DNA of 59,254 bases from a bacterium (GTDB taxonomy: Bacteria; Patescibacteriota; JACMRA01). Of this stretch, positions 3,391 through 58,843 are shown one piece after another. The number at the start of each line of letters is the position of its first letter. Positions within the stretch are counted from its first letter, which is position 1. Where the stretch lies: assembly GCA_043778555.1 (NCBI GenBank), contig JAYWFY010000045.1, positions 1 through 59,254 on the forward strand. The letters run 5' to 3'. The position numbers and the translations under genes are program-made. The notes below the pieces were generated by a model. That model worked only from the letters and a program-made list of their open reading frames with translations. It ran no database searches and was not told the origin of the DNA.

Positions 3391-3414
3391 AATCTAGCAG
3401 TCGGCTTTGTTTTA

Positions 3415-3444
3415 ATTTTACACTGTACCCCCTAAAGTTTGCAA
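3415..3444 (-). promoter_or_regulatory. Late promoter copy c (upstream of portal)
   Basis: Minus strand: TTGCAA-actttAGGGGGTACAGTG-TAAAAT, with an 18-nt spacer. Confidence 0.55.
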
Positions 3445-16225: not shown

Positions 16226-16279
16226 AACGCTGCTTTGCGTTACTTTTTTTGCTCACTTTTTAGTGGGTGAGACTTTTTT
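16226..16279 (+). terminator. Tandem terminator-like hairpins
   Basis: AACGC-tgcttt-GCGTT plus T7, then CTCAC-N10-GTGAG plus T6. Confidence 0.4.
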
Positions 16280-16511
16280 GACTGTGAAATATTGGCTACA
16301 AATTGATATTTACTAGCTAATAGGATTATAAGAAAAATTGCAAATGTTGTCAATTCACTCATAGAACTTGACTAATTATAGCAATATGTTTTATAGTTAA
16401 ATAAAGCTTAAATCAATACATATATTACAAGTAAATTACTAATTAATACTTTCATATTTTTAATCAATTAGTCAAAGTACATTGACATAACTAACAAAAC
16501 CTATTAACATT

Positions 16512-18816: not shown

Positions 18817-18846
18817 TTGACAAAATGATATAAAATAGTATATAAT
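18817..18846 (+). promoter_or_regulatory. Promoter for 18855..19868 (leaderless)
   Basis: TTGACA-18-TATAAT, with the ATG 8 nt downstream. Confidence 0.65.
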
Positions 18847-18854
18847 GATATAGT

Positions 18855-19868
18855 ATGAAATTATCACAATATGCAAAATTAAAAGGAGTATCCTATTTGA
18901 CAGCCAAAAAATGGTTTCACGCTGGAGATATTAAAGGTGTACAAATGCCGAGCGGTACAATTGTTATTGACGAATTAATCCCCGAAAAATTAGTTGATCC
19001 AAATATTATTAAAGTATCCCACCAAGGAAAAATTACAATTGGAGATTTCAAATTACCTTGTTATGTGCTAGAAAATGGATTGAGAGTTTTGTCAGGGCGT
19101 GGCATGCAAGCCTCTTTATCTATCAACAACACTGGCGGCCAAAAAATGGTCAGTTTTATAACCAAAAGTAGTTTAAAACCTTTTATTGACGCTGAAATAA
19201 TTGCGGCCATAAACACTCCGATGCAATTTGCAAATAAACAAGGAAAAATAGGATATGGTTTTGAAGCAAAAATATTAAATAAAATATGTTCAAATTTGTT
19301 GTCATATAGAAGGCATTGTTTACAAAACAATATGGCTATTTCTGATTCAGAAAATAGGATAATTAGTCAATGTGAGATTCTTCAAGGTGGATTTGCTGAG
19401 GTTGGTATTATAGCCCTCGTTGACGAAGCCACAGGCTATCAAGGAGATAGGCAAAAAGATGAGCTTCAAAAGATCCTTAGTGCATATATTTCTAAAGAAC
19501 TTTTACCTTGGCAAAAACGATTCCCAAATGAGTATTACGAGCAAATATGCAGACTTAGAGATTGGAATTATGATCCTCTTACTCAAAAAAGACCACAAAT
19601 CATCGGTAAAATTACAAATCAGATTGTGTATAAACTATTGCCAGACGGCATTTTAGAAGAATTAAGGAAACTTAATCCACCAAATGAGAATGGTAATAGA
19701 TCGCAAAACCATCACCAATTTTTGACACTTGATATTGGTAATATTAATCTTGAAAGGCACTTAGCTCAAGTCATAGTTTTGATGAGAATTTGTAAATCTT
19801 GGGTAGAGTTTGAAGAAAAACTATACGACGCTTTCCCCAGATTTGGTCAACAAGAAAAATTATTTTAG
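18855..19868 (+). CDS. P63C-domain protein with N-terminal excisionase/MerR-type HTH
   Basis: N-terminus MKLSQYAKLKGVSYLTAKKWFHAGDIKG. C-terminal P63C-like block ..ALVDEATGYQ..WQKRFPNEYYEQICRL..NHHQFLT... The final G of the TAG stop is the first base of the IS inverted repeat. Confidence 0.65.
   Translation: MKLSQYAKLKGVSYLTAKKWFHAGDIKGVQMPSGTIVIDELIPEKLVDPNIIKVSHQGKITIGDFKLPCYVLENGLRVLSGRGMQASLSINNTGGQKMVSFITKSSLKPFIDAEIIAAINTPMQFANKQGKIGYGFEAKILNKICSNLLSYRRHCLQNNMAISDSENRIISQCEILQGGFAEVGIIALVDEATGYQGDRQKDELQKILSAYISKELLPWQKRFPNEYYEQICRLRDWNYDPLTQKRPQIIGKITNQIVYKLLPDGILEELRKLNPPNENGNRSQNHHQFLTLDIGNINLERHLAQVIVLMRICKSWVEFEEKLYDAFPRFGQQEKLF
19858..19867. repeat. Target-site duplication, left copy (AATTATTTTA)
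   Basis: Immediately abuts the left TIR. Identical to 21932-21941. Confidence 0.8.
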
Positions 19869-19879
19869 GTAATTATCCC
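19868..19879. repeat. IS left terminal inverted repeat GGTAATTATCCC
   Basis: Perfect reverse complement of 21920-21931. Confidence 0.8.
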
Positions 19880-19908
19880 TTGACAACACTTAAATAATAT
19901 GATATAAT
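19880..19908 (+). promoter_or_regulatory. Transposase promoter abutting the left TIR
   Basis: TTGACA-17-TATAAT, starting 1 nt after the TIR. Confidence 0.65.
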
Positions 19909-19929
19909 TATAGGGTAATAAACAACCTT

Positions 19930-20841
19930 ATGATTCCTCAAAAATTCGTCAAATATACTATAAAAGAATTTCGTAAAAACTTTGCCACAGATGACATTTG
20001 CCTAGATTATCTATTCAAACAGTTCTACGGTCATTTGAGTGATTTTGATAAATACTACAAAATTAAAGGTCGTAAAGAATATGTACACTCTGTAACTGGA
20101 GAGCATATCTCGCCAACTGCAAATAGTATTTTTCATAAATCTAGTACTCCTTTGACAACTTGGTTTGAGGTAATCTACAAGTTCTGTAATAGTCGAAATG
20201 GTGTTAGTGCAATGGAAATAATGCGTGATTTTGGTATGACCTACAAATGTGCTTGGAGAGTTGCAAATCAAGTAAGAAGTCTGTTTGGATCAAATAAAGC
20301 TGACAAACTAGCTGGAATTATAGAGGCGGACGAAACTTACATCGGAGGCAAAGAAGGTAATAAAAAACTAAGTAAAAGACAAAAAGGAACTCAAGGTAGA
20401 AGCTCCAAAACAAAAACTCCAGTGATAGGAGTTGTAAAGCGAACTGATGAAGATTCTAAGTCTGAAATTCGAGCTAAAGTAGTCGCTGATACTTCACGAT
20501 CAACAATAATGCCATTTGTCAAAGCAAATGTAGAAATCAATTCTAGTTTGATGACTGATGAATATCAATCTTACAACGGAGCATATAGTGCTGGATATGA
20601 CCACCAAAGAGTAATCCATAGCTCTAGCCAATATGTCCTTGGAAATGTTTATACAAACACTTTGGAGGGCTTTTGGTCACTGCTTAAATGTGGAATTACT
20701 GGAACTTATAGAATGGTCTCACCAAAGTATCTACAAATGTATGTCAATGAGTTTATGTATCGTTACAATCACGACCATAGCAAATCTCATTTGTTTGACA
20801 CTGTACTTTGTAATTTAGTTAAGAATGATTTAATTGTTTAG
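19930..20841 (+). CDS. IS1595-family (ISXO2-like) DDE transposase
   Basis: 303 aa. ..LAGIIEADETYIGGKEGNKK.. and ..LMTDEYQSYNG..HQRVIHS..TNTLEGFWSLLK fit the DDE_Tnp_IS1595 pattern. Confidence 0.8.
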   Translation: MIPQKFVKYTIKEFRKNFATDDICLDYLFKQFYGHLSDFDKYYKIKGRKEYVHSVTGEHISPTANSIFHKSSTPLTTWFEVIYKFCNSRNGVSAMEIMRDFGMTYKCAWRVANQVRSLFGSNKADKLAGIIEADETYIGGKEGNKKLSKRQKGTQGRSSKTKTPVIGVVKRTDEDSKSEIRAKVVADTSRSTIMPFVKANVEINSSLMTDEYQSYNGAYSAGYDHQRVIHSSSQYVLGNVYTNTLEGFWSLLKCGITGTYRMVSPKYLQMYVNEFMYRYNHDHSKSHLFDTVLCNLVKNDLIV

Positions 20842-21869
20842 TCAAAAAGTGGGATTGGCTGAGGAGTATTTGGATATGGTATCCTCTCGTTTAACCTAGC
20901 CATCGCTTCGTTCATATCGCCTCCAGAATCAGCTGTTTGTTCAAAAATCAATTCTGCTTTCCCAAGTACATATTTCATTTGTTCTCTTCCATAATCTGTG
21001 AGGTTTTGGTGTAACCTGTGTTTATATCCTCCATTTTTTGATTTAATTGCCCTATCTTTTAACTCTTCTAAAATAACTGAGCCAGCAGGAAGGCGTTTAT
21101 AAAGATCATTTGTTATCCAAGAAACACATTGAGGGTGGTTTATTTTCTCGAGTGAATAATGATCCCATTCCCAACTATAAAGCCTATAAATCTGTTTATA
21201 AAACTCTTCAGGAAATAATTTTAACCAAGGTCTCAGTGCGTCTGCTATATTTTTCTTAATTACTTCTTGCCATTCATTTATTCTTTTTTCATATCCAGTT
21301 ACTTCATAAATCAACGCTTTGATTCCTATTTCCGCGAGTGATTCAACAAGTATTTCTGTCTGTTTTACTAGTAATAAAGACAATTTTGGGTCAGGTAAAA
21401 TTTTGTAATCGCTACTTTTTTCGCGATTGATTCTTGTAATTGCTGTACAAAGTTTAGGTAAAATTTCAGCTGGAATAAGAGCTGTTTTCATACCTCCTCC
21501 TTTACCTCTTTTCCCGTACAGAGGATATTTAATTGAGTTTAATACATCTTGAGTAATTAATGACCTAAAAATTACTTTTCCAAAAAGTTCTTCTAAGGCA
21601 GTTCCTCGTTTTGAATCTAAAAAAAACAATTTTTGTACATCATTTCTAGCTAAAAGAGTTATTGCTTCATTATTTTCATTTTTTCCTACATAGCATTCTA
21701 AACTTATTTCTCCAAGATTTAGCTGGTTTTCTGGCTCACCTGCAATTATTGGAATAAGGTCAGCCCTTTTAGCTTTTTTAAGTGTTTCGTTTATTTGAAT
21801 TTGAAATTGTTCTCGCTCTTTATTAAGCTCTTCATCATTTTGAAGTTGGCTAGATGTAGTTGTAATCAT
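20838..21869 (-). CDS. P63C-domain protein (IS passenger gene)
   Basis: ATG at 21869 (MITTTSSQ..). ..ALIYEVTGYE..WLKLFPEEFYKQIYRL..HRLHQNLT.. is paralogous to 18855..19868. A promoter lies 8 nt upstream. Confidence 0.65.
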   Translation of the reverse strand: MITTTSSQLQNDEELNKEREQFQIQINETLKKAKRADLIPIIAGEPENQLNLGEISLECYVGKNENNEAITLLARNDVQKLFFLDSKRGTALEELFGKVIFRSLITQDVLNSIKYPLYGKRGKGGGMKTALIPAEILPKLCTAITRINREKSSDYKILPDPKLSLLLVKQTEILVESLAEIGIKALIYEVTGYEKRINEWQEVIKKNIADALRPWLKLFPEEFYKQIYRLYSWEWDHYSLEKINHPQCVSWITNDLYKRLPAGSVILEELKDRAIKSKNGGYKHRLHQNLTDYGREQMKYVLGKAELIFEQTADSGGDMNEAMARLNERIPYPNTPQPIPLFD

Positions 21870-21877
21870 ACCAGATA

Positions 21878-21907
21878 ATTCTACAATAAAAATTACCACT
21901 ATGTCAA
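21878..21907 (-). promoter_or_regulatory. Promoter of the IS passenger P63C gene (leaderless)
   Basis: Minus strand: TTGACA-18-TAGAAT, with the ATG 8 nt downstream. Confidence 0.6.
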
Positions 21908-22097: not shown

Positions 22098-23294
22098 CTA
22101 CTTTTTGACAGCCTCTCCACCACTGGCAATACAAGCCTCCATAGTGTCATAATTTGTCCAAGTTTTGGTCGTGCTATATCCTGCTGTTCCTCTAAAGTGA
22201 CATTTGCCAGAGCTGGCAGTTTTGATCACTGCACTTTTCTCAAGGCTGGTTGGGTTGGTAACTTTTGGAGTTTCTATTATTTGAGCTTTTGGTGTCTCTA
22301 ATTTTGGTGATGTTATAGCTGGTGTCTGTGCAACTGGCGGAATTAAGACATTAGTTTTAGTATTTTCTTTGCTTGCTTGAGTTGTATCTCCGTTACAAGT
22401 GTCAGCCGACCACAATCCTCTTTGGTTCTCTCTAGCAGATTTTTGAGCATTTAGATAAATTTCTGATCTTGGATGCGGAAACTTCACATAGGCGTTGGCA
22501 TAACCGTCTAGTATAGCATTGTAATTGTAATCATAGCCTGTTTCTGTAGTAATATATGCCAAGACTCTATTGTATTTGTCAATCCTGTCCGAAGGGTTAA
22601 ATTCTAGTTTGACTTTTTGACCGTCAAGTTTATTGTGAGCATTTTGACTAGCTTCTTTTCCAAAACATTGCACTACTTTGCGCGGATCTTTGGTTTCGGG
22701 TGTGTCTATGCCTATCAATCTCAGTGTTCCATACTTTTCTACTTTGACAGTATCTCCATCTACCACTTTCAAGATTTTGACATATTCTCCAATAGGCAAT
22801 GTATTTATAACTTTTTCCACTTCTTTTATATCATTGACAACCTCTACTTTTTGACCGTCGTTGTCTATGGTTTTGCCCTGTTCTAGTTTGATATATTCAG
22901 AGCTTGAGACAGTGACTGTTTGACTAGATGTTGCGATTATAGAGCTACTTGATAGCCTAGCGTCTTTTGTGCCAGATTCAGGTAATAAAGAACTTTGTAC
23001 GCTACTTGAGCTTAGTATGCCCAAAGTTTGTTTTGCATCTTTTACAGGATCTATCTTATTTGTTCCAGTTACTACTGCCGTCCAAGCCGTGCCGACTATA
23101 CCTAGGAAAAATATTGGCAAAATTAAAATTGCTACTTTTGCCCACTTTGGCATTTTGAGTTTCCAAACAAATCTTATTAGAAAATATCCAAGTACAAAAA
23201 ATAAAGCGTAAAAGCAAACCATTAATGCTAAGATATAGCAAATGATTCCCAGGATTTTGTTTTTTGTGTAAATTGATTTTAATTTTTGTATCAT
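22098..23294 (-). CDS. Membrane-anchored thermonuclease (SNase-like) with a Cys-containing C-terminal module
   Basis: N-terminal TM helices and an S/T-rich linker. The SNase core is ..VDGDTVKV..LRLIGIDTPETKDP..R.LAYI... The C-terminus SGKCHFRGTAGYSTTKTW..ACIASGG is sunset-domain-like. Confidence 0.7.
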   Translation of the reverse strand: MIQKLKSIYTKNKILGIICYILALMVCFYALFFVLGYFLIRFVWKLKMPKWAKVAILILPIFFLGIVGTAWTAVVTGTNKIDPVKDAKQTLGILSSSSVQSSLLPESGTKDARLSSSSIIATSSQTVTVSSSEYIKLEQGKTIDNDGQKVEVVNDIKEVEKVINTLPIGEYVKILKVVDGDTVKVEKYGTLRLIGIDTPETKDPRKVVQCFGKEASQNAHNKLDGQKVKLEFNPSDRIDKYNRVLAYITTETGYDYNYNAILDGYANAYVKFPHPRSEIYLNAQKSARENQRGLWSADTCNGDTTQASKENTKTNVLIPPVAQTPAITSPKLETPKAQIIETPKVTNPTSLEKSAVIKTASSGKCHFRGTAGYSTTKTWTNYDTMEACIASGGEAVKK

Positions 23295-23304
23295 AATAAC
23301 TCAA

Positions 23305-23333
23305 ATTATACCGTTTATAAAGGTTTTGGTCAA
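23305..23333 (-). promoter_or_regulatory. Thermonuclease promoter
   Basis: Minus strand: TTGACC-17-TATAAT, with the ATG 10 nt downstream. Confidence 0.65.
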
Positions 23334-23472
23334 AATTAAATACAAAGAAAATACACAATTTTGTATATTTATTCATAGTAATTTAGTATTCTATAATGCA
23401 ATCAATACTCTTTTTAATGGCTTATTACAGGTTTTTATAGCTTTAAGTAATTAGTAATCTACTATGAGTACC

Positions 23473-23501
23473 TTGACATAACAAAAAAAGTTATGTATAA
23501 T
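23473..23501 (+). promoter_or_regulatory. Promoter of the recombination operon
   Basis: TTGACA-17-TATAAT, followed immediately by the conserved 38-mer. Confidence 0.65.
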
Positions 23502-23539
23502 TAGATAGTTAAGTAATTAATAATTTGACAGCTAAGAAA
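23502..23539 (+). promoter_or_regulatory. Conserved 38-mer leader/operator, copy 1
   Basis: TAGATAGTTAAGTAATTAATAATTTGACAGCTAAGAAA, matching 26604-26641 at 35/38 positions. Confidence 0.7.
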
Positions 23540-23712
23540 AACAACCCCTCATAGGGCAGTAAAAAAATATGACTATTAGTTTGTTTTCCAATCCGTGCGA
23601 TTGAGACCAGATGATCATATCCATAGCAACTTGCTAGCAATCTATATTGTGCTAGTAACAAGCCAGCCCGTCAATAATTAATCAAATTTCTTTCAAAACA
23701 ACTTTATGCCAG

Positions 23713-23946
23713 ATGAATACCAAAACTTTTACCTTGATTCAATCACCCCACAATCGGAATTTGATCAAGATCCGGTTCAACCTGAAGAAGGAGATTTTAC
23801 TTTTGCTTCAGAAGATTGATCTTATTTCCATATTATTGTTAGTCATACTTTTCTTTGCTTTCCAATATGCAGTGAATAATGATTGCAATATGACTTGGAA
23901 TCAATGTGATTCCCACGGAATCATCCAAACTATAAACCAAAAATAA
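23713..23946 (+). CDS. Small membrane protein (alternative: overlapping 36-aa acidic ORF 23706-23816)
   Basis: 77 aa with the TM segment LISILLLVILFFAF. It ends 6 nt before the next gene. The overlapping frame MPDEYQNFYLDSITPQSEF.. resembles the leader ORF at 26781. Confidence 0.35.
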   Translation: MNTKTFTLIQSPHNRNLIKIRFNLKKEILLLLQKIDLISILLLVILFFAFQYAVNNDCNMTWNQCDSHGIIQTINQK

Positions 23947-23952
23947 CCTTTT

Positions 23953-24897
23953 ATGTCAGAAATTGCAACCGTCGCCAACCCTCAAATCCAGAATGATAGC
24001 CTCGCTTCATTCCAAGTCCTAGCCTCATTCGCTAATCAATTGTGTAAATCAGAGGCACTCCCAGCTTGCTATAAAAATGCAGCCAACGTTTTAGTAGCTC
24101 TCCAAACAGGCAAAGAAATGGGATTGCAGCCAATGGAGTCGCTCAACTCACTGTATATTGTAAATGGTAAAATCCAAATTTGGGGATCAGCTCAAATCAA
24201 ACTATTAAAGCTAAATGGCTGGAAACTTAATGTCAGAACAACAACAGACAAACTTTGTGACCTGCAAATCACCAAAGGAGATGAGTCATTTGACTATCAA
24301 ACCAAATTTGAAGAATTACCTACATCATCAAAAGCAAAGGCGTTCGCTCCAAAAGAAAAACTATATTATCACACAGTTAGCAGATTGATAAGATTTTACG
24401 TTCCTGAAGTATTAGGTGGTCAACACCTTTATAATGAGGTAGAAATTGCAGATATTGAGCCGACAGTAACAGTAACACAGCTAGGAGACAACGAATCCTT
24501 AATCAAATTCATCAGTACAGCCAAGTCAATTGACGTTTTAAAAAATATTGAATCTCAATGTAAAACTGACAATGAAAAATTAGCTTACTCAGAAAAACTA
24601 AATACTTTTTTAGCAGTTGTTGAAAAACCTGTAACACCAGAAGTTGAAACAACTCCTATAGAAGTAGAAACTCCTGTTACGATTGCATCTTTACCAGTAA
24701 TTGATCTATTTGAACAGCCAAAAGCTTGTCACCTCAAATTGTACAGTGTTTTAGGTTTAGCTTATCCAGAGCCTGAAACTTACCAGCGAGCAATTGGATT
24801 AATTTCAGAGCAATATGGTATGGAGCTAATTGAAGACTTGACCGAAGCACAGTGCCAAGAGCAAATTAATTTAATCCAAAAAGTAATCAAAAACTAG
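23953..24897 (+). CDS. RecT-like single-strand annealing protein
   Basis: ..VLVALQTGKEMGLQPMESLNSLYIVNGKIQIWGSAQIKLLKLNGW.. is an SSAP-like core. The gene is paired with a nuclease gene. Confidence 0.55.
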   Translation: MSEIATVANPQIQNDSLASFQVLASFANQLCKSEALPACYKNAANVLVALQTGKEMGLQPMESLNSLYIVNGKIQIWGSAQIKLLKLNGWKLNVRTTTDKLCDLQITKGDESFDYQTKFEELPTSSKAKAFAPKEKLYYHTVSRLIRFYVPEVLGGQHLYNEVEIADIEPTVTVTQLGDNESLIKFISTAKSIDVLKNIESQCKTDNEKLAYSEKLNTFLAVVEKPVTPEVETTPIEVETPVTIASLPVIDLFEQPKACHLKLYSVLGLAYPEPETYQRAIGLISEQYGMELIEDLTEAQCQEQINLIQKVIKN

Positions 24898-24900
24898 CCT

Positions 24901-25563
24901 ATGGATTTTTCAAACTATCAATTCAGGTGTTCACAACTTCCGCTTTTAATGACTAAATCAAAGAAAGCTGGAGAGCTATCTGAAACTGTCAAAACAGTTC
25001 TCCAAGAAATTTGGATCAAAGAAATCTATTTTAGAGAAAAAATCATCACTTCTAAGTACCTTGAAAAAGGTATAAACCAAGAAGACAAATCAATCGAATT
25101 ATACAATGAGTATAGTCAAACATTTACAACCAAAAATAGTCAAAAGTTTTTTGGTGAATATTTAGTTGGTACTCCAGATATAATCCGAGAAAACTCAGTC
25201 GATGACATCAAAACTTGCTGGGATATTTGGAGCTTTTCCAAAAAGTCTTATGATACAGCTAAAAAAGATTATTACTACCAATTACTAGCCTATATGATCC
25301 TTACTGAGCGTCAAGAAGCCTCTATTGTCTATTGTCTATTAAACAACTCAGAAGAGATTATAACAAAAGAATCTTGGGGGATGAATGAAGCTCAAATTGC
25401 TCAAGTGAGATACAACAATACTTATGATGACATTCCAGTTCATGATAAAGTCAAAGTATTCCATTTTAGCTACGACAAAGACGAAGTTGCAGCAGTTTAT
25501 GCGCAGCTAGATCTATGCCGAGAATATCTTAAAAATATAAAATATGAATCCTTTAACCAATAA
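24901..25563 (+). CDS. PD-(D/E)XK exonuclease (YqaJ/lambda-Exo-like)
   Basis: ..GTPDII..(9)..DDIKTCW.. gives a D..D-x-K motif. The gene lies 3 nt downstream of the SSAP gene. Confidence 0.55.
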   Translation: MDFSNYQFRCSQLPLLMTKSKKAGELSETVKTVLQEIWIKEIYFREKIITSKYLEKGINQEDKSIELYNEYSQTFTTKNSQKFFGEYLVGTPDIIRENSVDDIKTCWDIWSFSKKSYDTAKKDYYYQLLAYMILTERQEASIVYCLLNNSEEIITKESWGMNEAQIAQVRYNNTYDDIPVHDKVKVFHFSYDKDEVAAVYAQLDLCREYLKNIKYESFNQ

Positions 25564-25568
25564 ATTTT

Positions 25569-25673
25569 ATGATTATTTATACTATCAAAAACCACCAAGT
25601 TCTTGTTTCAGATTCGATCATTTTTAGTGACAATTTAATCAATTACTATTTCTTCAAAAAAATCTATTATTAA
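25569..25673 (+). CDS. Micro-ORF (34 aa)
   Basis: Hand translation: MIIYTIKNHQVLVSDSIIFSDNLINYYFFKKIYY*. It starts 5 nt after the exonuclease stop. Confidence 0.3.
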   Translation: MIIYTIKNHQVLVSDSIIFSDNLINYYFFKKIYY

Positions 25674-25674
25674 A

Positions 25675-25764
25675 ATGCTCTCTATGGACTTTATTTACTC
25701 ATTATTCCCTTGTATTACAGGCTTCATAATTGGTAGTTTAATTGCAAAACACATCTTAAAATAA
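25675..25764 (+). CDS. Micro-ORF (29 aa), single-TM peptide
   Basis: MLSMDFIYSLFPCITGFIIGSLIAKHILK*. It starts 1 nt after the previous stop. Confidence 0.35.
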   Translation: MLSMDFIYSLFPCITGFIIGSLIAKHILK

Positions 25765-25775
25765 CCCTTTATAAC

Positions 25776-25880
25776 ATGACTAACTCACAAACCATAATTA
25801 ACTTCATAATCTGGTTAATCCTAGCAGGCTATTTTTTAGCCATCTTTACCTATTTTCTATTCCATTCAGGAGTTCAGTGA
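25776..25880 (+). CDS. Micro-ORF (34 aa), single-TM peptide
   Basis: MTNSQTIINFIIWLILAGYFLAIFTYFLFHSGVQ*. Confidence 0.35.
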   Translation: MTNSQTIINFIIWLILAGYFLAIFTYFLFHSGVQ

Positions 25881-25922
25881 TAAAAAGCTTATAAGAATCG
25901 ACAAACTTGCTTTGGGAAAAAT

Positions 25923-26156
25923 CTATAATCCACCAAGCATTTCAAAAAAAGTTTCTTCATCTAGTCCTATTTGTTTCAGATATGTTTTTACATGAAACGG
26001 TGGTATATTTTTATCTTTTGGCTTGACAATCAGTGGTCGTTTATCTCCTATACGAGCGTAAAAAAAGTGGCTACCAGTAGATCTGATAAACACAAACCCT
26101 AGCAGTTCTAATATTTTTACAAAATCTTTAGTTTTGATAGGAGGGAACGGCGGCAT
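25923..26156 (-). CDS. hicA: HicA-family mRNA interferase toxin
   Basis: 77 aa. ..KDFVKILELLGFVFIRSTGSHFFY..PLIVKPKDKNIPPFHVKTYLKQIGL matches the HicA pattern (GSH...; vp.H...l..g.l..ilkq.g). Confidence 0.75.
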   Translation of the reverse strand: MPPFPPIKTKDFVKILELLGFVFIRSTGSHFFYARIGDKRPLIVKPKDKNIPPFHVKTYLKQIGLDEETFFEMLGGL

Positions 26157-26490
26157 GAGTAGCTGGTTTAAAAGATAACAATGTTTTTATTACAAAAGGT
26201 GGAATAATCGTCACTTCATGATCGTTCTCTATTACTTTCCAGCCACATTCGCTCATTACTTCGTTCAGTGTGCCAAGATCCATCAAAGTTTCAAAAAACC
26301 CTTGCAAAGCCTCATTCATCTCGGTAAAACAACCTTCTTGAGTATCTGCCCAAGTTGAGACTTCCAAATCTGGACATTCTACTAGCCATAGACCGTTTTC
26401 TTGTAAAGATATTTCAATAGGTACACCACCCATCAGCTGGATTTGTTTTGTGACAGTGTTCACTTTACAGATTTTGTTATTATTTTTCAT
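26128..26490 (-). CDS. hicB: HicB-family antitoxin
   Basis: ATG at 26490 (MKNNNKICK..; the track start at 26580 is a TTG). ..GLWLVECPDLEVSTWADTQEGCFTEMNEALQGFFE.. is a HicB/UPF0150-like fold motif. It overlaps hicA by 29 nt. Confidence 0.6.
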   Translation of the reverse strand: MKNNNKICKVNTVTKQIQLMGGVPIEISLQENGLWLVECPDLEVSTWADTQEGCFTEMNEALQGFFETLMDLGTLNEVMSECGWKVIENDHEVTIIPPFVIKTLLSFKPATHAAVPSYQN

Positions 26491-26500
26491 ATGTAATTGT

Positions 26501-26529
26501 ATTATATCACACTTTTTGTTATTACACAA
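26501..26529 (-). promoter_or_regulatory. hicBA promoter
   Basis: Minus strand: TTGTGT-17-(TGa)TATAAT, with the ATG 10 nt downstream. Confidence 0.55.
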
Positions 26530-26603
26530 ATATTGTTTATTTTCAAGCTCTTTGTCAAATTGTAGAAACTCACGTAGCAATTGATCAGCAGTAAAATCTT
26601 CAC

Positions 26604-26641
26604 TAGATAGTTAAGCAATTAATAATTTTACAGCCAAGAAA
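26604..26641 (+). promoter_or_regulatory. Conserved 38-mer leader/operator, copy 2
   Basis: TAGATAGTTAAGCAATTAATAATTTTACAGCCAAGAAA. Confidence 0.7.
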
Positions 26642-26654
26642 TCAAAACTTTAAT

Positions 26655-26722
26655 TCTATTCATTAATCCAGTGAATAGAGCCTAAGGTTTTTACCTTAAT
26701 CCGTTGCCGACAAAAACAACGG
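26655..26722 (+). promoter_or_regulatory. Three consecutive hairpins in the envelope-operon leader
   Basis: TCTATTCA-N9-TGAATAGA, then TAAGGT-tttt-ACCTTA, then CCGTTG-N10-CAACGG. AATCC(A/G)T occurs in or next to the loops. Confidence 0.5.
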
Positions 26723-26780
26723 TGGAAACAAATACAAACAAGTGGACATACTTTTACAACCAAAACAAACAACAAACATT

Positions 26781-26882
26781 ATGCCTGAATTCATGCAGCA
26801 ATACATCTCACCAACATCTACACCAGTGCCACCATCTGACGCTGAAATCCTAAATACTATTACAAACCAATTATCAAAATAA
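26781..26882 (+). CDS. Leader micro-ORF (33 aa)
   Basis: MPEFMQQYISPTSTPVPPSDAEILNTITNQLSK*. Its start context CAAAACAA..TTATGCC is shared with 23706. Confidence 0.3.
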   Translation: MPEFMQQYISPTSTPVPPSDAEILNTITNQLSK

Positions 26883-26954
26883 ACATTATGTTAGAAATAT
26901 ACATCAGAACTGAAAGCGGCAATGCTACTGGTTCAATTTGCAACCAATAAAAAA

Positions 26955-27131
26955 ATGAGCTTGTTACAGCTCACTAATAAATTTCTTTCAAAAAATTCAC
27001 TTTTAATTATGACCCAAACCCAACAAACAGTCAAATCAAAATTAGTATTAATCCTCAAAATCTTAGCCTCTATCCTTACAGCTAAGTATTTTTTAGACAT
27101 TTTTTTCTACTTTTTAACAAACACCAACTAA
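26955..27131 (+). CDS. Small membrane protein
   Basis: ATG inside track ORF 26922..27131. TM segment LVLILKILASILTAKYFLDIFFYFL. Confidence 0.4.
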   Translation: MSLLQLTNKFLSKNSLLIMTQTQQTVKSKLVLILKILASILTAKYFLDIFFYFLTNTN

Positions 27132-27138
27132 TTCTAAA

Positions 27139-27360
27139 ATGACAAACACAAGCACAAAAGAGGAGATCCTTCTCGAAAACAAAAAGTTTACAGCCAGCTT
27201 GATTTTTATTCCAATGCTCGCAGTGTTGATCGCTGGAGTAATAGGCGGTATCAACCAACAGCCAAGCCCTCAGTATCCAGATTTGCCAAAAGGTTGCACT
27301 CCAACTTCACGGTCAATGTTTTGTCCAAACTGGTACCAAAATTCTATCAATCTCAAATAA
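27139..27360 (+). CDS. Small single-TM protein with an extracytoplasmic Cys pair
   Basis: 73 aa with TM LIFIPMLAVLIAGVIGG, then ..GCTPTSRSMFCPNWY. Confidence 0.55.
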   Translation: MTNTSTKEEILLENKKFTASLIFIPMLAVLIAGVIGGINQQPSPQYPDLPKGCTPTSRSMFCPNWYQNSINLK

Positions 27361-27370
27361 CCAAGCCAAA

Positions 27371-27613
27371 ATGTCTCTATATATATTTTTAGGTTTTATT
27401 GCTTTTATCGCAATAGCCAGCTCCAAAAAACCACAAACAAAATCATCCAACAACCACGCCAATCAGTTAGCTCCTACAGCTTACCACGCTCAGTCTATGA
27501 GCCACCTTGAAGGCGTAGGTACAATGGCAACCCAAATCACCAACAACGCCAGCTTTGGCAAGTTCCAAGGTTTAGATGGGACTATTGTCAACTGGTCAAT
27601 CGAAAAAAAATAA
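27371..27613 (+). CDS. Small N-terminally anchored or secreted protein
   Basis: 80 aa with N-terminal hydrophobic MSLYIFLGFIAFIAIASS. Confidence 0.55.
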   Translation: MSLYIFLGFIAFIAIASSKKPQTKSSNNHANQLAPTAYHAQSMSHLEGVGTMATQITNNASFGKFQGLDGTIVNWSIEKK

Positions 27614-27621
27614 ATACATAT

Positions 27622-28041
27622 ATGCCTACCATCACACTACCTCGCTTTTCAGATATGCTTAAAAAACAGCCAACCGAGAAGGATCTCAATGACCAGCGTG
27701 TCCGAGATCAATACAAAAAAGAAGCTATTACTCAAGCCGACCTAGAAGCTCAAAAGCAAATAGTCAAAAGTAATATACCATCTTTAATCTTTGTACTTTT
27801 AGTCGTTGCAGCAACAATTTATGGTTATTTTAGTCAAGAATTTGTAGCTAGATTTTTTACAGAATTAATTATTAGCTGGATTGATCAAGCCAATTTATTT
27901 ATCAGAACTCCTCAGGGCATTTTGATATTGGCAATGTTTATCTACATTGTAGCCGTGACCAAGTTTCCAGCTCAAACACATTTTATACAAACAAAAACAT
28001 CAACATTATGGTCAAAACTATCCTCATTATTGCAGCGGTAA
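27622..28041 (+). CDS. Membrane protein (2 TM)
   Basis: 139 aa with TMs IPSLIFVLLVVAATIYGYF and GILILAMFIYIVAV. Confidence 0.55.
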   Translation: MPTITLPRFSDMLKKQPTEKDLNDQRVRDQYKKEAITQADLEAQKQIVKSNIPSLIFVLLVVAATIYGYFSQEFVARFFTELIISWIDQANLFIRTPQGILILAMFIYIVAVTKFPAQTHFIQTKTSTLWSKLSSLLQR

Positions 28042-28670
28042 TCTATGTCTTTGTGACTTTTATAGCTCCAATTCCAAAAGATATACAAGCCAAGCAAGCC
28101 TATGGTCTTACTTCTAACAAAGTTATTCCAATTACAGCTCAAGCTCAAACCAATATTACTCAGATTATAGGCAACAAACTCAAAGAAGCTAACCCAGCCC
28201 AGTATCTAGGTCAAAGCATCAAAACTTCTAGTATTGGTCTAGTGGACAACCAAACCCTAGATTGTGTGGATCTGTTTAATGTTGATCTCTTCAACCGTAC
28301 AGGCATCAAACCCAAGATTAAAGTTGGCGGTGCAAAACAAATCTGGAATAATCCAAGCCTAGAGATTGACCAAAGTATCAAATTTGAGAAAATTCTAAAC
28401 AGCCCAGACTTTGTACCTAAAAAAGGTGATTATCTTGTTTGGACTACTTACCCAGAAAGTGATAATCCAAAGTTTAAGTCCAAAGACGGTGCAGGCAATG
28501 TTTTAGCAGGTGACAGCGATTATGGTCACGTGGCTATAGACAGCGGAGAATCAACTTCTAATATGCTTATTGATTACGAGCAAGATACCTTTGCAAATGT
28601 TCCAACTTACAAAGCAGAAAGATCTTATCACAATCTTGCAGGCGTAATCCGCTTAATTTCAATCAATTAA
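28008..28670 (+). CDS. Exported/anchored CHAP-domain peptidoglycan hydrolase
   Basis: N-terminal signal anchor ILIIAAVIYVFVTFIA. Candidate catalytic Cys in ..TLDCVDLF.. and His in ..DYGHVAID.., a CHAP pattern. Confidence 0.65.
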   Translation: MVKTILIIAAVIYVFVTFIAPIPKDIQAKQAYGLTSNKVIPITAQAQTNITQIIGNKLKEANPAQYLGQSIKTSSIGLVDNQTLDCVDLFNVDLFNRTGIKPKIKVGGAKQIWNNPSLEIDQSIKFEKILNSPDFVPKKGDYLVWTTYPESDNPKFKSKDGAGNVLAGDSDYGHVAIDSGESTSNMLIDYEQDTFANVPTYKAERSYHNLAGVIRLISIN

Positions 28671-28680
28671 CAAAAATAAA

Positions 28681-29460
28681 ATGTCCAACATCAAAACATA
28701 CATGTTTGTAGCAGGTTTTATTATCCTTGCAGTAGTTGCAATTAATAACCCAAGACAAACACCAAACAAAACAGCTCAGGCACAAGTGACAGCCCAGTCA
28801 AGTATTTCTAATGTTTCAAGCGTTTCAAGCATTCCATCCAGTAAAACCAAAACTGAAACTATCAAAGTAGAAGCCCAAAGCGAGCCAACACTAGCTCAAA
28901 GTACAGACGATAATGTCAAAGCCGAAATGTTAGCCAAAGCGGATCAAAAATTCAGCTGGAACGCCAGCAACTCTACAGTAGCTAATGTTGTTATTCCAGA
29001 AGTCAAAGCCACAAGTTGCAATACCACTGTTGACGCTCATAGCTTAAAAAACGATATGCAAAAGGGCTCAGAACAGATCAATTTCTTTTTAGATTATTTT
29101 ATAGACAAAGGCTTTACTTGCAACGGTGCTAGCTACATGACAGCCTCACTAATTACCGAATCAAGTTTAAATTCTCTCAAAGATGAAAAGTGTGGCTTTG
29201 GTTTTTGTGGTGAATCTGAAGGGCTAGCTCAGTGGCGATCTACTAGACTCAAGGAACTCCGCAAAACCTGCGACCCGCAAGGCGACCGTGACTGTCAACT
29301 AAAGTTTTTGATACAGGAACTCAAACAGCGAGGTCAATATCAACCTTTTCTTACAGACGATGTAGACAATATAAAATCTACAATTGCCAAGTACGAAGGG
29401 TATGCCACACCGGGTGACCGCTTTGAGATAGCCACCAAAATTTTAAACAATCTAAAGTAA
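28681..29460 (+). CDS. Exported phage-tail-lysozyme-like (lysozyme-fold) protein
   Basis: Signal peptide (..FIILAVVAINN..KTAQAQV) and an S-rich linker. ..ASLITESSLN..GFGFCGESEGLAQWRSTRLKEL..CQLKFLIQELK.. resembles the Phage_lysozyme2 pattern (ES...G.GiaQW...R...L...Ql.f...El). Confidence 0.55.
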   Translation: MSNIKTYMFVAGFIILAVVAINNPRQTPNKTAQAQVTAQSSISNVSSVSSIPSSKTKTETIKVEAQSEPTLAQSTDDNVKAEMLAKADQKFSWNASNSTVANVVIPEVKATSCNTTVDAHSLKNDMQKGSEQINFFLDYFIDKGFTCNGASYMTASLITESSLNSLKDEKCGFGFCGESEGLAQWRSTRLKELRKTCDPQGDRDCQLKFLIQELKQRGQYQPFLTDDVDNIKSTIAKYEGYATPGDRFEIATKILNNLK

Positions 29461-29471
29461 TTCTAATTTTT

Positions 29472-29576
29472 ATGTCACATTACGATCACAAGATCTATTC
29501 AACTATTGTCTATCCAACAATCTCAATCCTCATTTTTTCAACAATTTTATTCATCTATTTTCTTTTTAAACTCTAA
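29472..29576 (+). CDS. Micro-ORF (34 aa), hydrophobic peptide
   Basis: Hand translation: MSHYDHKIYSTIVYPTISILIFSTILFIYFLFKL*. It ends 5 nt before the next ATG. Confidence 0.3.
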   Translation: MSHYDHKIYSTIVYPTISILIFSTILFIYFLFKL

Positions 29577-29581
29577 CTATT

Positions 29582-29824
29582 ATGTCCAAAATTATCAAAT
29601 TATCAATCACCATTTTTTGTTTTCTCACTACTTTTTTTGTAGCAAATGCAATATCTCAATCTTACCAATTAGACAGCTTACTTGTCCAAGCTAACCGTCA
29701 CCAAAGCGTCATAAACAAAACAATGACGAACGGCTCTTGCCAATCTGTCAACGCTTGCACAACCAGTCAAAAAGGAGTAGGTTTGGCTGCCAACGATTGC
29801 AAGCCTACAGAAACTTGCCAATAG
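29582..29824 (+). CDS. Small secreted Cys-rich protein
   Basis: 80 aa with signal peptide ..ITIFCFLTTFFVANA and a mature part with 4 Cys (..GSCQSVNACTT..NDCKPTETCQ). A terminator follows. Confidence 0.55.
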   Translation: MSKIIKLSITIFCFLTTFFVANAISQSYQLDSLLVQANRHQSVINKTMTNGSCQSVNACTTSQKGVGLAANDCKPTETCQ

Positions 29825-29829
29825 ACTTA

Positions 29830-30088: not shown

Positions 30089-31756
30089 TCACACTTTCAA
30101 ACTCATAATCACACCGACCCGCTCTTGACAAAACTGTAATAAATAATCAACCTTAAAAGGTTCAATATTGACCCGCTCAGTTGCACCATTGACAAATTCA
30201 TCATCTAATTCACCCCAAAAGTCCCTTAACAAAGGGCTTTTTTGTTGGTTCAATACAACCACTTTGTCATCTTTCTTATAGACTACAAATCCTTCAGGAA
30301 AAAGCAAGTTCAAAAGCTTTTTTTTAGTGGTATTATTGGCTTGATTAAAGCGTTTGTCAATTTCTATAGCTTCATCCAAACAAAGGTTCAATACATCTCC
30401 GACTTTGGCTTTTGGCTCACTAGATAATTTAATCAATTCTTTTTTGTATTCTAAAATCTTATTATTGTTTTCTACAGATTTTTTTTCAATAGCTTTCACC
30501 AAAGCTGGAGAATCAACAAGTAATATTTTTGCCACTGCCGTTTCATTTTCGATTTCAATATCTTTAATTTTTCGTTTAATCTTATCAATTTCTTTTTGGT
30601 TTTCAGCTTGTATATTTTTAGCTTTCTCTCCGAGGTATTTTTGCAGGTATTGAATAAATTTCAATGACAATACTTGTTTGGACAAATAGTTCAAAACTTC
30701 AAGCTCTATGAGTTCAGAGCGTATTGTCTTTGATTGCTGGTTACAGCCACGAGTGGGGCAAGCGTAATATTGCCACTCCAAAACACTCCCATTTTTTAAT
30801 GTTTTCTTTTTTAATTGTGTTGTCATGAAGTTTTGACACTCACTACATTTAGCGCAGCGTTTAAATATAAATTGATTATTGTTATTTTTCATGTATGCTG
30901 ATCTTTGAGATTTATTAATTCTTTCTAATATTTTTAAGTAAGTGTTTAAATCGATAATAGGCTTGTGAAGAGCATTTGACTTTGGGAAATTTGTTTTTTT
31001 GTCTACATTCTTTGGGTCGTACATATCTACGCCTTGGTTGGGTTTGTGGATAAATCCAGCATACAGAGGATTGGTGAGCATATCTTTGACATCCTCTTGT
31101 CTCTTGTTTATTCCAAGGCTTCTCAGATACTTTTGAACCTCTGCGCAACCTGAATAATTCCCATTAGCAAAGTCTTCTAGTAGCTCTTTAACTACAGGGG
31201 CTTTATCATTTTGTTGCATTATTTTAAGTTGTGATTTACCACTATTGTCATAGCCAAGTGGTGAGCCATAAAACCAATAACCTTGCTGGAGTCTCGCTTT
31301 TGACCGCTCCTTGGCTGTAGTAAGGTTAGATTTACGCATAAACTCATCTTGCCCACCCATCATCGTGAGCATTAACCAGCCAGCGTCAGTTTTCATATCT
31401 ACACCGTGCAGGTTAAAAAATTGAACATCATAATTATAGTCTTTTGTCAGTGTATCTACTGTAGAAAGCAGGAATATTACATCCCGAGCTAGCCTTGAAG
31501 TAGAAGGAAACAGCACCGTCAGATTTGGATTTTCTTTGCATTTTACTAGCAACAAATCAATCCCCTCTCGCTGTCTATTTCCTCCGCTAATAGCTTCATC
31601 TTGGAATGATTCCATGATCATATACCCATATTTTTTGGCATATTCCTTGCACTCTTGTAGCTGTGAACTCAGACCATTACCTTCGGTGACTTGCTTCCGT
31701 GATGACACTCTGCAATAGGTAAAACAGGGCTTTAGTTCTTGGACTTGGTCGGACAT
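30089..31756 (-). CDS. int: Large serine recombinase (integrase)
   Basis: 555 aa. N-terminal resolvase motif ..FTYCRVSSRKQ... It also has a recombinase domain, a zinc ribbon (CAKCSEC..YYACPTRGC) and a C-terminal coiled coil. Confidence 0.85.
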   Translation of the reverse strand: MSDQVQELKPCFTYCRVSSRKQVTEGNGLSSQLQECKEYAKKYGYMIMESFQDEAISGGNRQREGIDLLLVKCKENPNLTVLFPSTSRLARDVIFLLSTVDTLTKDYNYDVQFFNLHGVDMKTDAGWLMLTMMGGQDEFMRKSNLTTAKERSKARLQQGYWFYGSPLGYDNSGKSQLKIMQQNDKAPVVKELLEDFANGNYSGCAEVQKYLRSLGINKRQEDVKDMLTNPLYAGFIHKPNQGVDMYDPKNVDKKTNFPKSNALHKPIIDLNTYLKILERINKSQRSAYMKNNNNQFIFKRCAKCSECQNFMTTQLKKKTLKNGSVLEWQYYACPTRGCNQQSKTIRSELIELEVLNYLSKQVLSLKFIQYLQKYLGEKAKNIQAENQKEIDKIKRKIKDIEIENETAVAKILLVDSPALVKAIEKKSVENNNKILEYKKELIKLSSEPKAKVGDVLNLCLDEAIEIDKRFNQANNTTKKKLLNLLFPEGFVVYKKDDKVVVLNQQKSPLLRDFWGELDDEFVNGATERVNIEPFKVDYLLQFCQERVGVIMSLKV

Positions 31757-43838: not shown

Positions 43839-43846
43839 CTGATATA

Positions 43847-43876
43847 ATTCTACACTGTACCCCCTTATAATTTCAA
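43847..43876 (-). promoter_or_regulatory. Late promoter copy b
   Basis: Minus strand: TTGAAA-ttataAGGGGGTACAGTG-TAGAAT. The ATG lies 8 nt downstream. Confidence 0.55.
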
Positions 43877-46857: not shown

Positions 46858-48510
46858 TTAGTGGAAAATGTGTAGGTTTTTAATAAAGATTGATATTGGG
46901 CTGGCTGTATTTTTGGTAATTTCTAGGGTGTCAATTGGGTTTGTTTCGTACAAAAATGTATTTATTCGGCTGTCAAAAGTAAGTTGACCTTTGAGGGCTG
47001 TTTCGATTTTGACTAGTTCGTCCTCTGGATTGATTTCGTACCCTGTTGTGACATCGAATAGTTGCCCTTTGTGTGCATATAGCAACAGCCCTTCTTTGAC
47101 GACTTTGCTGGATAGCCACGTGATTTTGTATCCTGTTTGGTTGTCTAGGTTTAGTATCTGTATTGACTCGCCATATTTTAGTTGTGGTATTCTTACCAGA
47201 ATATACTTTGACTTAAAACTATTTTTGAGACTTAGCGATGTGGTAGTGTACCGTGTCGGGCTGTTGTTATTGATTTGACATTTTAGAACTCCTATCCCGT
47301 TCATTTCGTACAATTCATTACTAATTGTGGTTTGGTATTGGGTCGCCTGTATTCCTTGCTCCATTTGTGGTCTCCAAATCGTAAAGCTAACGGCTGTTTG
47401 TGGCGAATCGTTGGATAAATAAAACTTGATATTGGCAGTGGTAGAGTTAGGAACTAGCCCTTGCACTGCTATTTTTTGCCAATTACCGTCAAAAGTAACT
47501 ATTTGGCTATAATCATTCAAGATTGCACCTAGGTTATCCGAGGCATTAAATCCGATTTTGAGTGTTTGCCCTGATACTCCTTTAGCCCAGATTGAGGCGG
47601 TCAAGGTTAGATTGATAAAATTCCCTGACAAGATCTGGAATAGCCTTGAATTAAGATTATTAAAAGTAACTTTGGTGGCTGTATTAGTGCCATTTGGTGC
47701 TAGTTCTTGAGTATTGGCTGGCAATATCTGACCACCTCCCCATAGTAGTCCACCGCTCCAAGTTCCACCTCCACCCCAAAGGTTATTACTGGTTATTTGC
47801 CATACCGAATCAGTCAAGTCATCGGTACGATTAAGGAAGTTATAGCCTCGATTGGTATTTGTAACATTAAGGTATCTGTCGGTATACACCAGCTTTAATC
47901 GTTCTTTTTTGCTTTTGAGTTTGATTGTCAATTCCGAATCGGTGAATGTATTTAGCCGTACAAAATGGTCAAAATTACTTGACCCCCAGTATTTGGTAGC
48001 TTGTCCCCAAGTCAACCCTGCCTGACCATATGTCAAAATTGCATTAGATTTATACAACGCTTCGTCAACCAAAAAAATGTTGTCGTTGGCTTCATAAAAA
48101 AACGGGCTAAACATTCCAAACTTTACTTTGACCATCTTGTTTTTTTGTCCTAGGCTTTCGCTTTGGCTAGCGTCCTGCTCAAAACTCAAACACTCTGCAT
48201 AGTTCCAAAACACTTTGGTATAAACATTTTTGTTGTCGTCCGAATACTCCGCCGTAAAGAAAATCAGCTGTGGCTCGTTGACGAACTCATACTGTATCTT
48301 GTCTATATTCTCATACTCATCTGCCAAAAAACTAACATCAAACTCATAGTTGTTTTTGTAGTTTCTACGCCGTCCATTAACTCTGGCATTACCATCCATA
48401 AAGTCTTGATTTTCCTGCACGGTCTTAAATCCACCTGACACTTTACTGGTTAGGTTTTGTTTGTTGAACACATATTGTCCAAATTGGTAGATTTGTTTGA
48501 CACCGTACAT
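46858..48510 (-). CDS. Distal tail protein (Dit)-like with an extra domain
   Basis: 550-aa ORF immediately after the tape measure. The N-terminus is Sipho_tail-like by position. Confidence 0.45.
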   Translation of the reverse strand: MYGVKQIYQFGQYVFNKQNLTSKVSGGFKTVQENQDFMDGNARVNGRRRNYKNNYEFDVSFLADEYENIDKIQYEFVNEPQLIFFTAEYSDDNKNVYTKVFWNYAECLSFEQDASQSESLGQKNKMVKVKFGMFSPFFYEANDNIFLVDEALYKSNAILTYGQAGLTWGQATKYWGSSNFDHFVRLNTFTDSELTIKLKSKKERLKLVYTDRYLNVTNTNRGYNFLNRTDDLTDSVWQITSNNLWGGGGTWSGGLLWGGGQILPANTQELAPNGTNTATKVTFNNLNSRLFQILSGNFINLTLTASIWAKGVSGQTLKIGFNASDNLGAILNDYSQIVTFDGNWQKIAVQGLVPNSTTANIKFYLSNDSPQTAVSFTIWRPQMEQGIQATQYQTTISNELYEMNGIGVLKCQINNNSPTRYTTTSLSLKNSFKSKYILVRIPQLKYGESIQILNLDNQTGYKITWLSSKVVKEGLLLYAHKGQLFDVTTGYEINPEDELVKIETALKGQLTFDSRINTFLYETNPIDTLEITKNTASPISIFIKNLHIFH

Positions 48511-48511
48511 A

Positions 48512-58809: not shown

Positions 58810-58843
58810 AAATAATGCGAACTTTTTATTTTCGTTCTTTGTA

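Follow-up and report, generated by a model that had tools for sequence, protein, structure and literature searches.

A temperate phage with a circularly permuted genome of 59,156 bp makes up contig JAYWFY010000045.1, analysed here over its full 59,254 nt (the window); bases 1-98 recur unchanged at 59157-59254. According to Pfam and PHROG scans, the minus strand carries the replication, packaging, head, tail and lysis genes together with a serine integrase. An accessory arm at ~14.4-30.2 kb holds two plus-strand units, a recombination operon (recT and an exonuclease gene, exo) and an envelope cluster, whose leaders (leader 1 and leader 2) share a repeat of 38 nt, the 38-mer. A first-pass annotation of this DNA had reported the two copies at 35/38 identity, and we located them exactly so; they are the only two matches in the window, and none of 100 shuffles gave any. 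The pair is by far the top similarity between any two intergenic regions of the genome. Its members lie as direct repeats around a discrete 3,102-bp recT-exo-hicAB segment, and outside them the upstream flanks, the downstream leaders and the DNA of the first small open reading frames (micro-ORFs) align at the level of shuffled sequence (z of -0.6 to +0.2). A non-random repeat with such sharp homology edges argues for selection on a discrete element. This element is common to at least three transcription units of the phage and is also present in related phages. It probably serves these units jointly as a control signal that acts at the transcript level and belongs to an uncatalogued type. The features concerned are listed here.

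23473-23501, plus strand: promoter P1, TTGACA-17-TATAAT, 12/12 consensus positions
23502-23539, plus strand: 38-mer copy 1, made up of a TAGATA discriminator, hairpin H0 and a box
23508-23521, plus strand: inner hairpin of copy 1, GNRA loop at 23513-23516, 6 nt after the -10 and at the putative transcript 5' end
23524-23535, plus strand: box of copy 1, TTTGACAGCTAA
26604-26641, plus strand: 38-mer copy 2
26610-26623, plus strand: inner hairpin of copy 2, GNRA loop at 26615-26618, with outer pairs AGAU/AUUU extending to 26605-26628
26626-26637, plus strand: box of copy 2, TTTTACAGCCAA
16278-16353, minus strand: perfect promoter 16353->16325, a 5' hairpin and box TTTCACAGTCAA at 16289->16278, heading a long leader
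18896-18907, plus strand: box match TTTGACAGCCAA, an uncertain member, 50 nt past the perfect promoter 18817-18846
23443-23458, plus strand: AT-rich 16-mer TTAAGTAATTAGTAAT, one mismatch from the 38-mer core, not transcribed from P1

Relatives were reached through the SNase gene that is transcribed divergently from leader 1, homologues of which led to three related phage or prophage fragments (L020, L021 and L022/L023). Two of these carry P1 and then the start of the 38-mer almost verbatim, as CTTGACAAC[T/C]AAAAAAA..TTATGTATAAT followed by TAGATAGTTA[A/G]GT. Other routes gave no further copies. Scans of IMG/VR, GTDB genomes and JGI metagenomes with the exact 38-mer and with half-patterns returned nothing, or a chance match in coding sequence at L016/L017, and a blastn search of INPHARED found no match. 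RecT homologues were at most 69% identical and lay in different contexts without the 38-mer; for the 220-aa envelope protein a single relative was found (L018, 47% identity), whose leader is long and lacks the element; and the context of another SNase homologue (L026) holds no divergent leader. A gapped promoter-plus-box scan of IMG/VR gave 34 matches, all of them conserved gene starts encoding FTVK and irrelevant here.

Copy 1 begins right after the TATAAT of P1, as the annotation had said, and the -35, the A-rich spacer (..AAAAAAAGTTATG) and the -10 of this fully consensus promoter are conserved in L020a, L022a and L022b. Five compact copies, two in the window and three in the relatives, share the same layout of -10, 6-7 nt, hairpin, 2 nt and box.

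Window copy 1: hairpin GUUAA-GUAA-UUAAU, box UUUGACAGCUAA
Window copy 2: hairpin GUUAA-GCAA-UUAAU, box UUUUACAGCCAA
L022a: hairpin GUUAGG-UUAAUU-CCUAAC, box UUUUACAGCUAA
L020b: hairpin AGUGA-GAAA-UCACU, box UUUUACAGUCAA
L021b: hairpin CUAGA-GGAA-UCUAG, box AUUUACAGCAAA

The stem sequences differ between copies, yet they pair in every one. In a gap-free alignment of the four compact copies without L022a (A3) every cell pairs and double compensatory changes occur at four of the five pairs; when L022a is added (A6), all cells remain paired and compensatory changes extend to 5/5 pairs, compared to at most 56% pairing in slid controls. A covariance model built without L022a recovers L022a (24.4 bits, E = 0.01). 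The loops are of GNRA type in 4/5 compact copies (GUAA, GCAA, GAAA and GGAA), and the sole difference between the two window copies within the hairpin (T/C, position 13) is the N of this loop. Covarying stems and GNRA loops together are a signature of RNA structure rather than of a protein-bound DNA palindrome. The hairpin also stands at the expected start of the transcript, and the box is confined to transcribed leaders, in the orientation of transcription each time. In P1-type copies, TAGATA and AAUUU can add four outer pairs (AGAU/AUUU). The box that follows is conserved as TTT[G/T]ACAGYYAA, which in the window copies reads UUU(G/U)ACAGCYAA as RNA, and its ACAGYYAA part is predicted to be unpaired in most compact copies. 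In L022b the hairpin and box lie ~40 nt after a P1-type promoter.

The box is associated with strong promoters. Perfect promoters of the form TTGACA-N16-18-TATAAT number exactly four in the window, and so do the matches to TTTNACAGYYAA, of which 0.6 would be expected. Three of the boxes each follow one such promoter, on the same strand and at 22-50 nt, and the fourth box is that of copy 2. The only perfect promoter without a box belongs to the IS1595-family transposase gene (19930-20841), which is wedged between two inverted P63C-domain genes (18855-21899). Among L020-L022, 6/8 box matches are found 24-169 nt downstream of 6/10 strong promoters, always co-oriented. The perfect minus-strand promoter 16353->16325, which we infer to drive the early lytic operon, heads a promoter-leader that is orthologous to L020b and L021b, both of which carry the GNRA hairpin and the box. 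The annotation's view that the two accessory units are co-regulated stands as a reasonable inference, and the same box also follows this putative early lytic promoter. It may also follow the promoter of gene 18855, widening the co-regulated set; this match lies within the coding sequence of that helix-turn-helix (HTH)/P63C gene, and coding constraint could explain it.

The putative early lytic leader itself is long, conserved and non-coding (16353->14633, minus strand, with counterparts at 8408-9115 in L020 and 3389-4178 in L021). In the window it is split by an insertion of ~1.3 kb (16067->14780) with four small ORFs, and its hairpins double as plus-strand terminators (16226-16272).

Leaders behind the module are ~170-800 nt long, untranslated, A/C-rich and G-poor. 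They are exceptional here, because most other accessory genes have leaders of ~0-15 nt. Long untranslated leaders of such composition are prime substrates for Rho and RNases. Leader 2 folds, as the annotation had described, into three successive predicted plus-strand hairpins, H1 (26654-26680), H2 (26683-26698) and H3 (26701-26722), with a fold z of -1.9. It is homologous to the leader of L022a, where the cassette has a P1-type promoter. H1 and H2 are kept there with compensatory changes (U-A to C-G in H1, two double changes in H2), and H3 is kept as a hairpin of unrelated sequence. The genes that follow the two leaders are unrelated, and because the cargo differs behind a conserved leader, the promoter-leader unit is a portable cassette.

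Several accessory genes of the window lie 4-15 nt from their own -10 and are nearly leaderless. At the other extreme of length, an apparently structured, GC-richer untranslated leader of ~800 nt (L022, 7770->6950, minus strand) is preceded by a box and a P1-type promoter; Rfam gave no match for it, and it may represent a large non-coding RNA.

We tentatively favour, with more doubt than assurance, the reading that the 38-mer specifies a leader module working as RNA, through which a factor is brought to polymerase or to the nascent transcript, by an antitermination logic resembling that of nut or rrn sites. Two leader RNAs would each begin with ~35 nt specified by the repeat, which would consist of two parts. 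The first would be a stem-loop at the transcript 5' end, with an inner stem of 5 bp, a GNRA loop and four possible outer pairs, and the second, 2 nt on, the conserved single-stranded box UUU(G/U)ACAGCYAA. Placed behind consensus sigma-70-type promoters, the cassette would head long untranslated leaders with different cargo in each phage. Once transcribed, hairpin and box would together attract a factor, from host or phage, that joins the RNA or the polymerase during elongation. The outcome would be processive (anti-Rho) antitermination, which would let transcription continue through the long untranslated leaders. The operons that bear the module, namely recT/exo, the envelope cluster and the putative early lytic operon, would then be controlled together. 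A bolder form of this proposal, which we regard as doubtful, is that the hairpin and ACAG box are the recognition site of a previously undescribed anti-Rho antitermination system whose box is unrelated to boxA, ops or put. Here the portable cassette would license long leaders and co-ordinate early and accessory operons in temperate phages of an uncultivated, maybe Peregrinibacteria-like host without Shine-Dalgarno sites.

Several points weigh against an antitermination module of this kind. There is no plus-strand intrinsic terminator in either leader, nor any between 23502 and 29828, so antitermination would need Rho-dependent or unrecognised signals. Pfam and PHROG scans of ~45 proteins, not every ORF, gave no match to an N-, Q- or NusG-like protein, a negative of little weight for N proteins, which are too divergent for it to count. 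The hairpins are weak (-1 to -4 kcal/mol in the window copies, not significant against shuffles), the early leader of the window has a different stem in place of the GNRA hairpin, and L020a and L021a, which are orthologous to leader 1, carry an insertion that the window lacks and that puts ~160-170 nt between promoter and box. Copy 2 has no P1-type -35/-10 upstream and no convincing promoter of its own. The comparison rests on three independent lineages, and Rfam contributes no match in the window at the gathering threshold; at E<=5 the region 23300-27000 gave nothing relevant, and L020-L022 gave no match at E<=0.1. Finally, the box contains a -35-like TT(G/T)ACA and can equally be read as DNA.

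Could the box be a DNA operator or roadblock, with the hairpin as a separate feature? The asymmetric TT(G/T)ACAGYYAA would then be bound by the prophage repressor or another phage regulator, giving a stoperator-like block of promoter escape or elongation in the lysogen. We consider this somewhat unlikely, and it is the rival that survives best. A prophage has to keep promoters of perfect consensus repressed. The box occurs nowhere but downstream of strong promoters, in the direction of transcription each time; the putative early lytic promoter has it too, and across phages the box keeps its sequence where the stem does not. An exact 10-mer, TACAGCCAAG, also occurs five times (14679, 15199, 24516, 26629 and 31310), always co-oriented with local transcription; three of the five occurrences lie in coding sequences, one overlaps the box of copy 2, and a bias in coding-strand composition may contribute to them. 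On the other hand, the scans recognised no repressor or HTH protein in the immunity region (14.4-17.7 kb), four sites in 59 kb are few, and the distance between promoter and box varies from 22 to 169 nt. The box abuts a covarying hairpin, an RNA-type signature, and it is kept among phages whose neighbouring proteins are 62-71% identical, whereas immunity specificities usually diverge.

It is rather less probable, and on balance unlikely, that the module acts only after transcription, as a 5' stem-loop that shields long leader mRNAs from 5'-end-dependent decay beside a box that serves as a site for an RNase, S1 or a similar protein, without an effect on elongation. The geometry is that which defines a stabiliser: at four independent promoters (P1 of the window, L022a, L020b and L021b) the hairpin starts 6-7 nt after the -10, at the expected 5' end as judged from inferred transcription starts. 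The stems covary, and the long untranslated A-rich leaders would be exposed to RNases. The stems are weak for this role, however, and a stabiliser gives no account of the conserved, specific sequence of 8-12 nt beside the hairpin, nor of the persistence of the box where the hairpin is altered or distant (early leader of the window, L020a and L021a).

Copy 2 invites a third explanation, that the 38-mers are a recombination scar or module boundary, left by a promoter-leader cassette that was duplicated or exchanged when recT-exo-hicAB was inserted, with copy 2 now functionless. Homology of copy 2 to P1-type cassettes starts exactly at TAGATAG, at the 38-mer edge shared with L022a, and the sequence upstream differs, as expected if a P1-type promoter had been lost. 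The only candidate -10, TAAAAT at 26592-26597, was picked by eye, has a poor -35 and was not listed by the consensus scan. Direct repeats around a discrete 3.1-kb block and cassettes that precede different cargo in different phages would fit such a history. The flanks have fully diverged, however, and the 38-mer is still 92% identical; copy 2 keeps all transcribed parts (hairpin, box and H1-H3), which fold as in L022a, and the arrangement is the same in all 11-12 contigs with this phage. We thus hold a scar to be quite improbable. Copy 2 may thus be served by a weak promoter, need an activator or be transcribed by read-through from P1, the last of these being possible because no plus-strand terminator was found before 29829.

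Beyond the 38-mer, the first-pass annotation had described a paralogous leader as a whole, with AATCCGT boxes, an A/C-rich run ending in TTATGCC, micro-ORFs with similar N-termini and perhaps an attenuator. These parts could not be upheld. At least one 7-mer is shared between the leaders in 92% of shuffles (mean 3.7), and AATCCGT, a chance 7-mer by this measure, is not conserved in the orthologous leaders. The A/C-rich run with TTATGCC reflects a start context found genome-wide. In 52 genes no Shine-Dalgarno motif was found (0/52), upstream regions are A-rich and G-poor, T stands at -1 in 75%, codon 2 most often has C as its second base (58%), and 8/52 genes start with ATGCC. Both micro-ORFs (corrected coordinates 23706-23819 and 26781-26882) look like real genes, scoring above all 82 decoy ORFs on codon usage; their peptides gave no BLASTP alignment with each other and are unrelated by this measure. 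L020 has an acidic 38-aa ORF at the position of micro-ORF1, with no significant similarity to it. Neither leader contains a plus-strand hairpin followed by a U-tract, and nothing beyond the 38-mer aligns above shuffles. The full paralogous-leader model, nutL/nutR-like or operator plus attenuator, has on its side the common 38-mer and the small ORFs with coding signal after both leaders and is contradicted on every other point than the 38-mer itself, which makes it hardly credible. The earlier reading is thus one of a genuine shared cis-element and the right kind of logic, over-extended to the whole leader. By our estimate the five ranked readings together take up nearly all of the probability, the small remainder being reserved for something not considered.

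A number of smaller candidates were rejected. A promoter within the 38-mer is not supported, as in none of the copies is its TTGACA/TTTACA followed by a consistent -10 at a spacing of 16-18 nt, and an alternative-sigma or Bacteroidota-type promoter found no match, the phage's own promoters being canonical. An internal 12-nt direct repeat, AYAGYYAAGNAA, considered as a tandem operator, is weakly enriched and not conserved in the relatives. HicB is a poor candidate binder, with the site >90 bp upstream of the hicB promoter and copy 1 3 kb from hicAB. An att-like sequence or insertion sequence end was dismissed for lack of similarity to the attP region and of inverted repeats, and an antisense RNA of ~100 nt (23640->23535) for a promoter at chance level and a fold z of -0.3. 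Homology of the micro-ORFs, whether between copies or to the L020 peptide, was significant in neither case.

Around P1, the related sequence that had been noted upstream of the -35 is indeed present, in that TTAAGTAATTAGTAAT at 23443-23458 differs from the 38-mer core by one mismatch; it belongs to an upstream block shared with L021a and lies outside the transcribed element. The adjoining -35 region is shared with a promoter at 16.5 kb. This promoter (16476-16498) and P1 (23467-23489) have in common a -35 block (AGTACNTTGACATAAC..) and part of the upstream region (z = 4.7). The 16.5-kb promoter has no 38-mer, and the promoters look mosaic. On the minus strand, a terminator-like hairpin with a T-tract (23544-23557) adjoins the 3' end of copy 1; in L020a and L021a a hairpin of like form, CCCU..AGGG, comes after the box.

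The genes around the two leaders are as follows.

22098-23294, minus strand: membrane-anchored SNase
23706-23819, plus strand: micro-ORF1, 37 aa, acidic, the first ORF of the recT operon
23803-23946, plus strand: small membrane protein, 47 aa, TTG start, overlapping the end of micro-ORF1 and conserved in L021
23953-24897, plus strand: RecT-like protein
24901-25563, plus strand: PD-(D/E)XK exonuclease
25923-26490, minus strand: hicA and hicB
26781-26882, plus strand: micro-ORF2, 33 aa, the first ORF after leader 2
to 29824, plus strand: small membrane proteins, a CHAP-like protein (a reading of the sequence, with no family match) and a lysozyme-like protein

Gene calls of the public contigs are empty at 23295-23952 and 26491-27370, though several small ORFs there show coding signal. 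A small minus-strand unit, 27034->26945, consists of a promoter-like TTGACT-17-CATAAT and a terminator hairpin, lies antisense to ORF 26922-27131 and is 81% conserved in L020 (3223-3289). Repeated blocks of 30 nt occur at 3411-3444, 43843-43876 and 58840-58873, and also at 20789-20830 and 48491-48532. Read on the minus strand, each has the form of a TTGAAA-N18-TAGAAT promoter in which the GGGGGTACAGTG spacer is conserved; they precede structural genes and may be late promoters with a regulator site.

Identical integrated prophage copies are present in European Nucleotide Archive (ENA) contigs, in which phage homology stops at ~30188-30203 and gives way to host genes for RNase III and ABC-F; the second plus-strand unit therefore lies at the right end of the prophage. 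The arrangement is identical in all 11-12 contigs with this phage, and no natural deletion variants occur among them. The junction (window ~30188-30203; L001 16230-16250) lies within the 3'-terminal ~35 codons of the ORF for the serine integrase (30089-31756, minus strand), so that the C-terminus of the integrase would change on integration. The host flank encodes RNase III, ABC-F and pentapeptide proteins; its ABC-F protein has no close relative among GTDB species representatives, and one SNase homologue named Candidatus Peregrinibacteria is a weak hint on the host.

Phages and cells use promoter-proximal leader signals, nut, put, ops and rrn boxBAC among them, to commit polymerase to long operons, and to our knowledge almost all known signals of this type come from a few model hosts. 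The module described here has covariation support and no Rfam family, and it comes from a lineage whose host uses consensus sigma-70 promoters without Shine-Dalgarno sites. The analysis also separates signal from background, the 38-mer and hairpins standing on one side and the AATCCGT box and TTATGCC/MP start on the other. If the module recruits an elongation or stability factor, it would represent a new class of cis-element, a handle on that factor and a compact, portable promoter-leader cassette.

In comparison to known systems, the likeness is partial in every case, and by sequence the module belongs to none of them. The stoperators of mycobacteriophage L5 are sites for its repressor gp71, about thirty in number. 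Like them, the box is a short asymmetric site downstream of promoters and co-oriented with them, also at the putative early lytic promoter, and its placement agrees (after 3/4 perfect promoters, including P16353(-), and 6/10 strong ones in the relatives). The window has four sites, however, compared to about thirty, and a covarying hairpin is joined to the site here, an indication of RNA. RfaH and other NusG paralogues act on JUMPStart/ops elements, which are ~39 bp long. These elements resemble the 38-mer in length, in their position in the long 5' leaders of accessory and envelope operons, in having several copies per genome, and in depending on orientation but not on a fixed distance from the promoter. 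The 38-mer does not contain the ops consensus GGCGGTAGnnTG, and no KOW/NusG-like match was found in the proteins scanned. Stem-loops that act as 5'-terminal stabilisers, for example in the ompA leader or the phage SP82 stabiliser, need no adjacent conserved box. They share with the module a hairpin at the putative +1 with little or no single-stranded overhang, whereas here a conserved box adjoins the hairpin and the stems are weak. An attenuator, with an intrinsic terminator and an alternative antiterminator fold in the leader, was found in neither leader.

The closest parallels are with antitermination sites. In phage lambda, nutL and nutR, the boxA + boxB sites of N-dependent processive antitermination, differ by one loop nucleotide, and so do the two window copies. 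As with nut, two or more operons in a temperate phage have the same short element in their leaders, and a 5-bp hairpin with a GNRA-type loop, the boxB hallmark, stands beside a conserved single-stranded box; to this extent the nutL/nutR likeness drawn by the annotation was borne out, and it does not extend to the boxA core, the order of the parts or an N-like protein, which the scans of ~45 proteins did not find. In every compact copy the hairpin precedes the box, whereas boxA is 5' of boxB in nut; the hairpin lies at the putative extreme 5' end of the transcript; and no downstream plus-strand intrinsic terminators were found (23502-29828). The boxA core bound by NusB/NusE is GCUCUUU (E. coli UGCUCUUUAACA, lambda CGCUCUUA; PMC3177189), and its absence from UUU(G/U)ACAGCYAA is a further point against a nut-like mode of action. 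The rrn antitermination leader, of boxB-boxA-boxC layout, acts through Nus factors and SuhB. In it a hairpin is followed by a linear box, the order seen here (PMC10250234). The module likewise stands early in a long untranslated transcript that would otherwise be exposed to Rho, and its UUUGACA partly resembles the UUUAACA in the 3' half of E. coli boxA; the 5' half of boxA (GCUC) is absent, and no boxC was identified. Membership in the nut and rrn families thus fails because the boxA core is absent. By analogy, the module, a member of neither family, appears to work most like the nut or rrn antiterminator sites.

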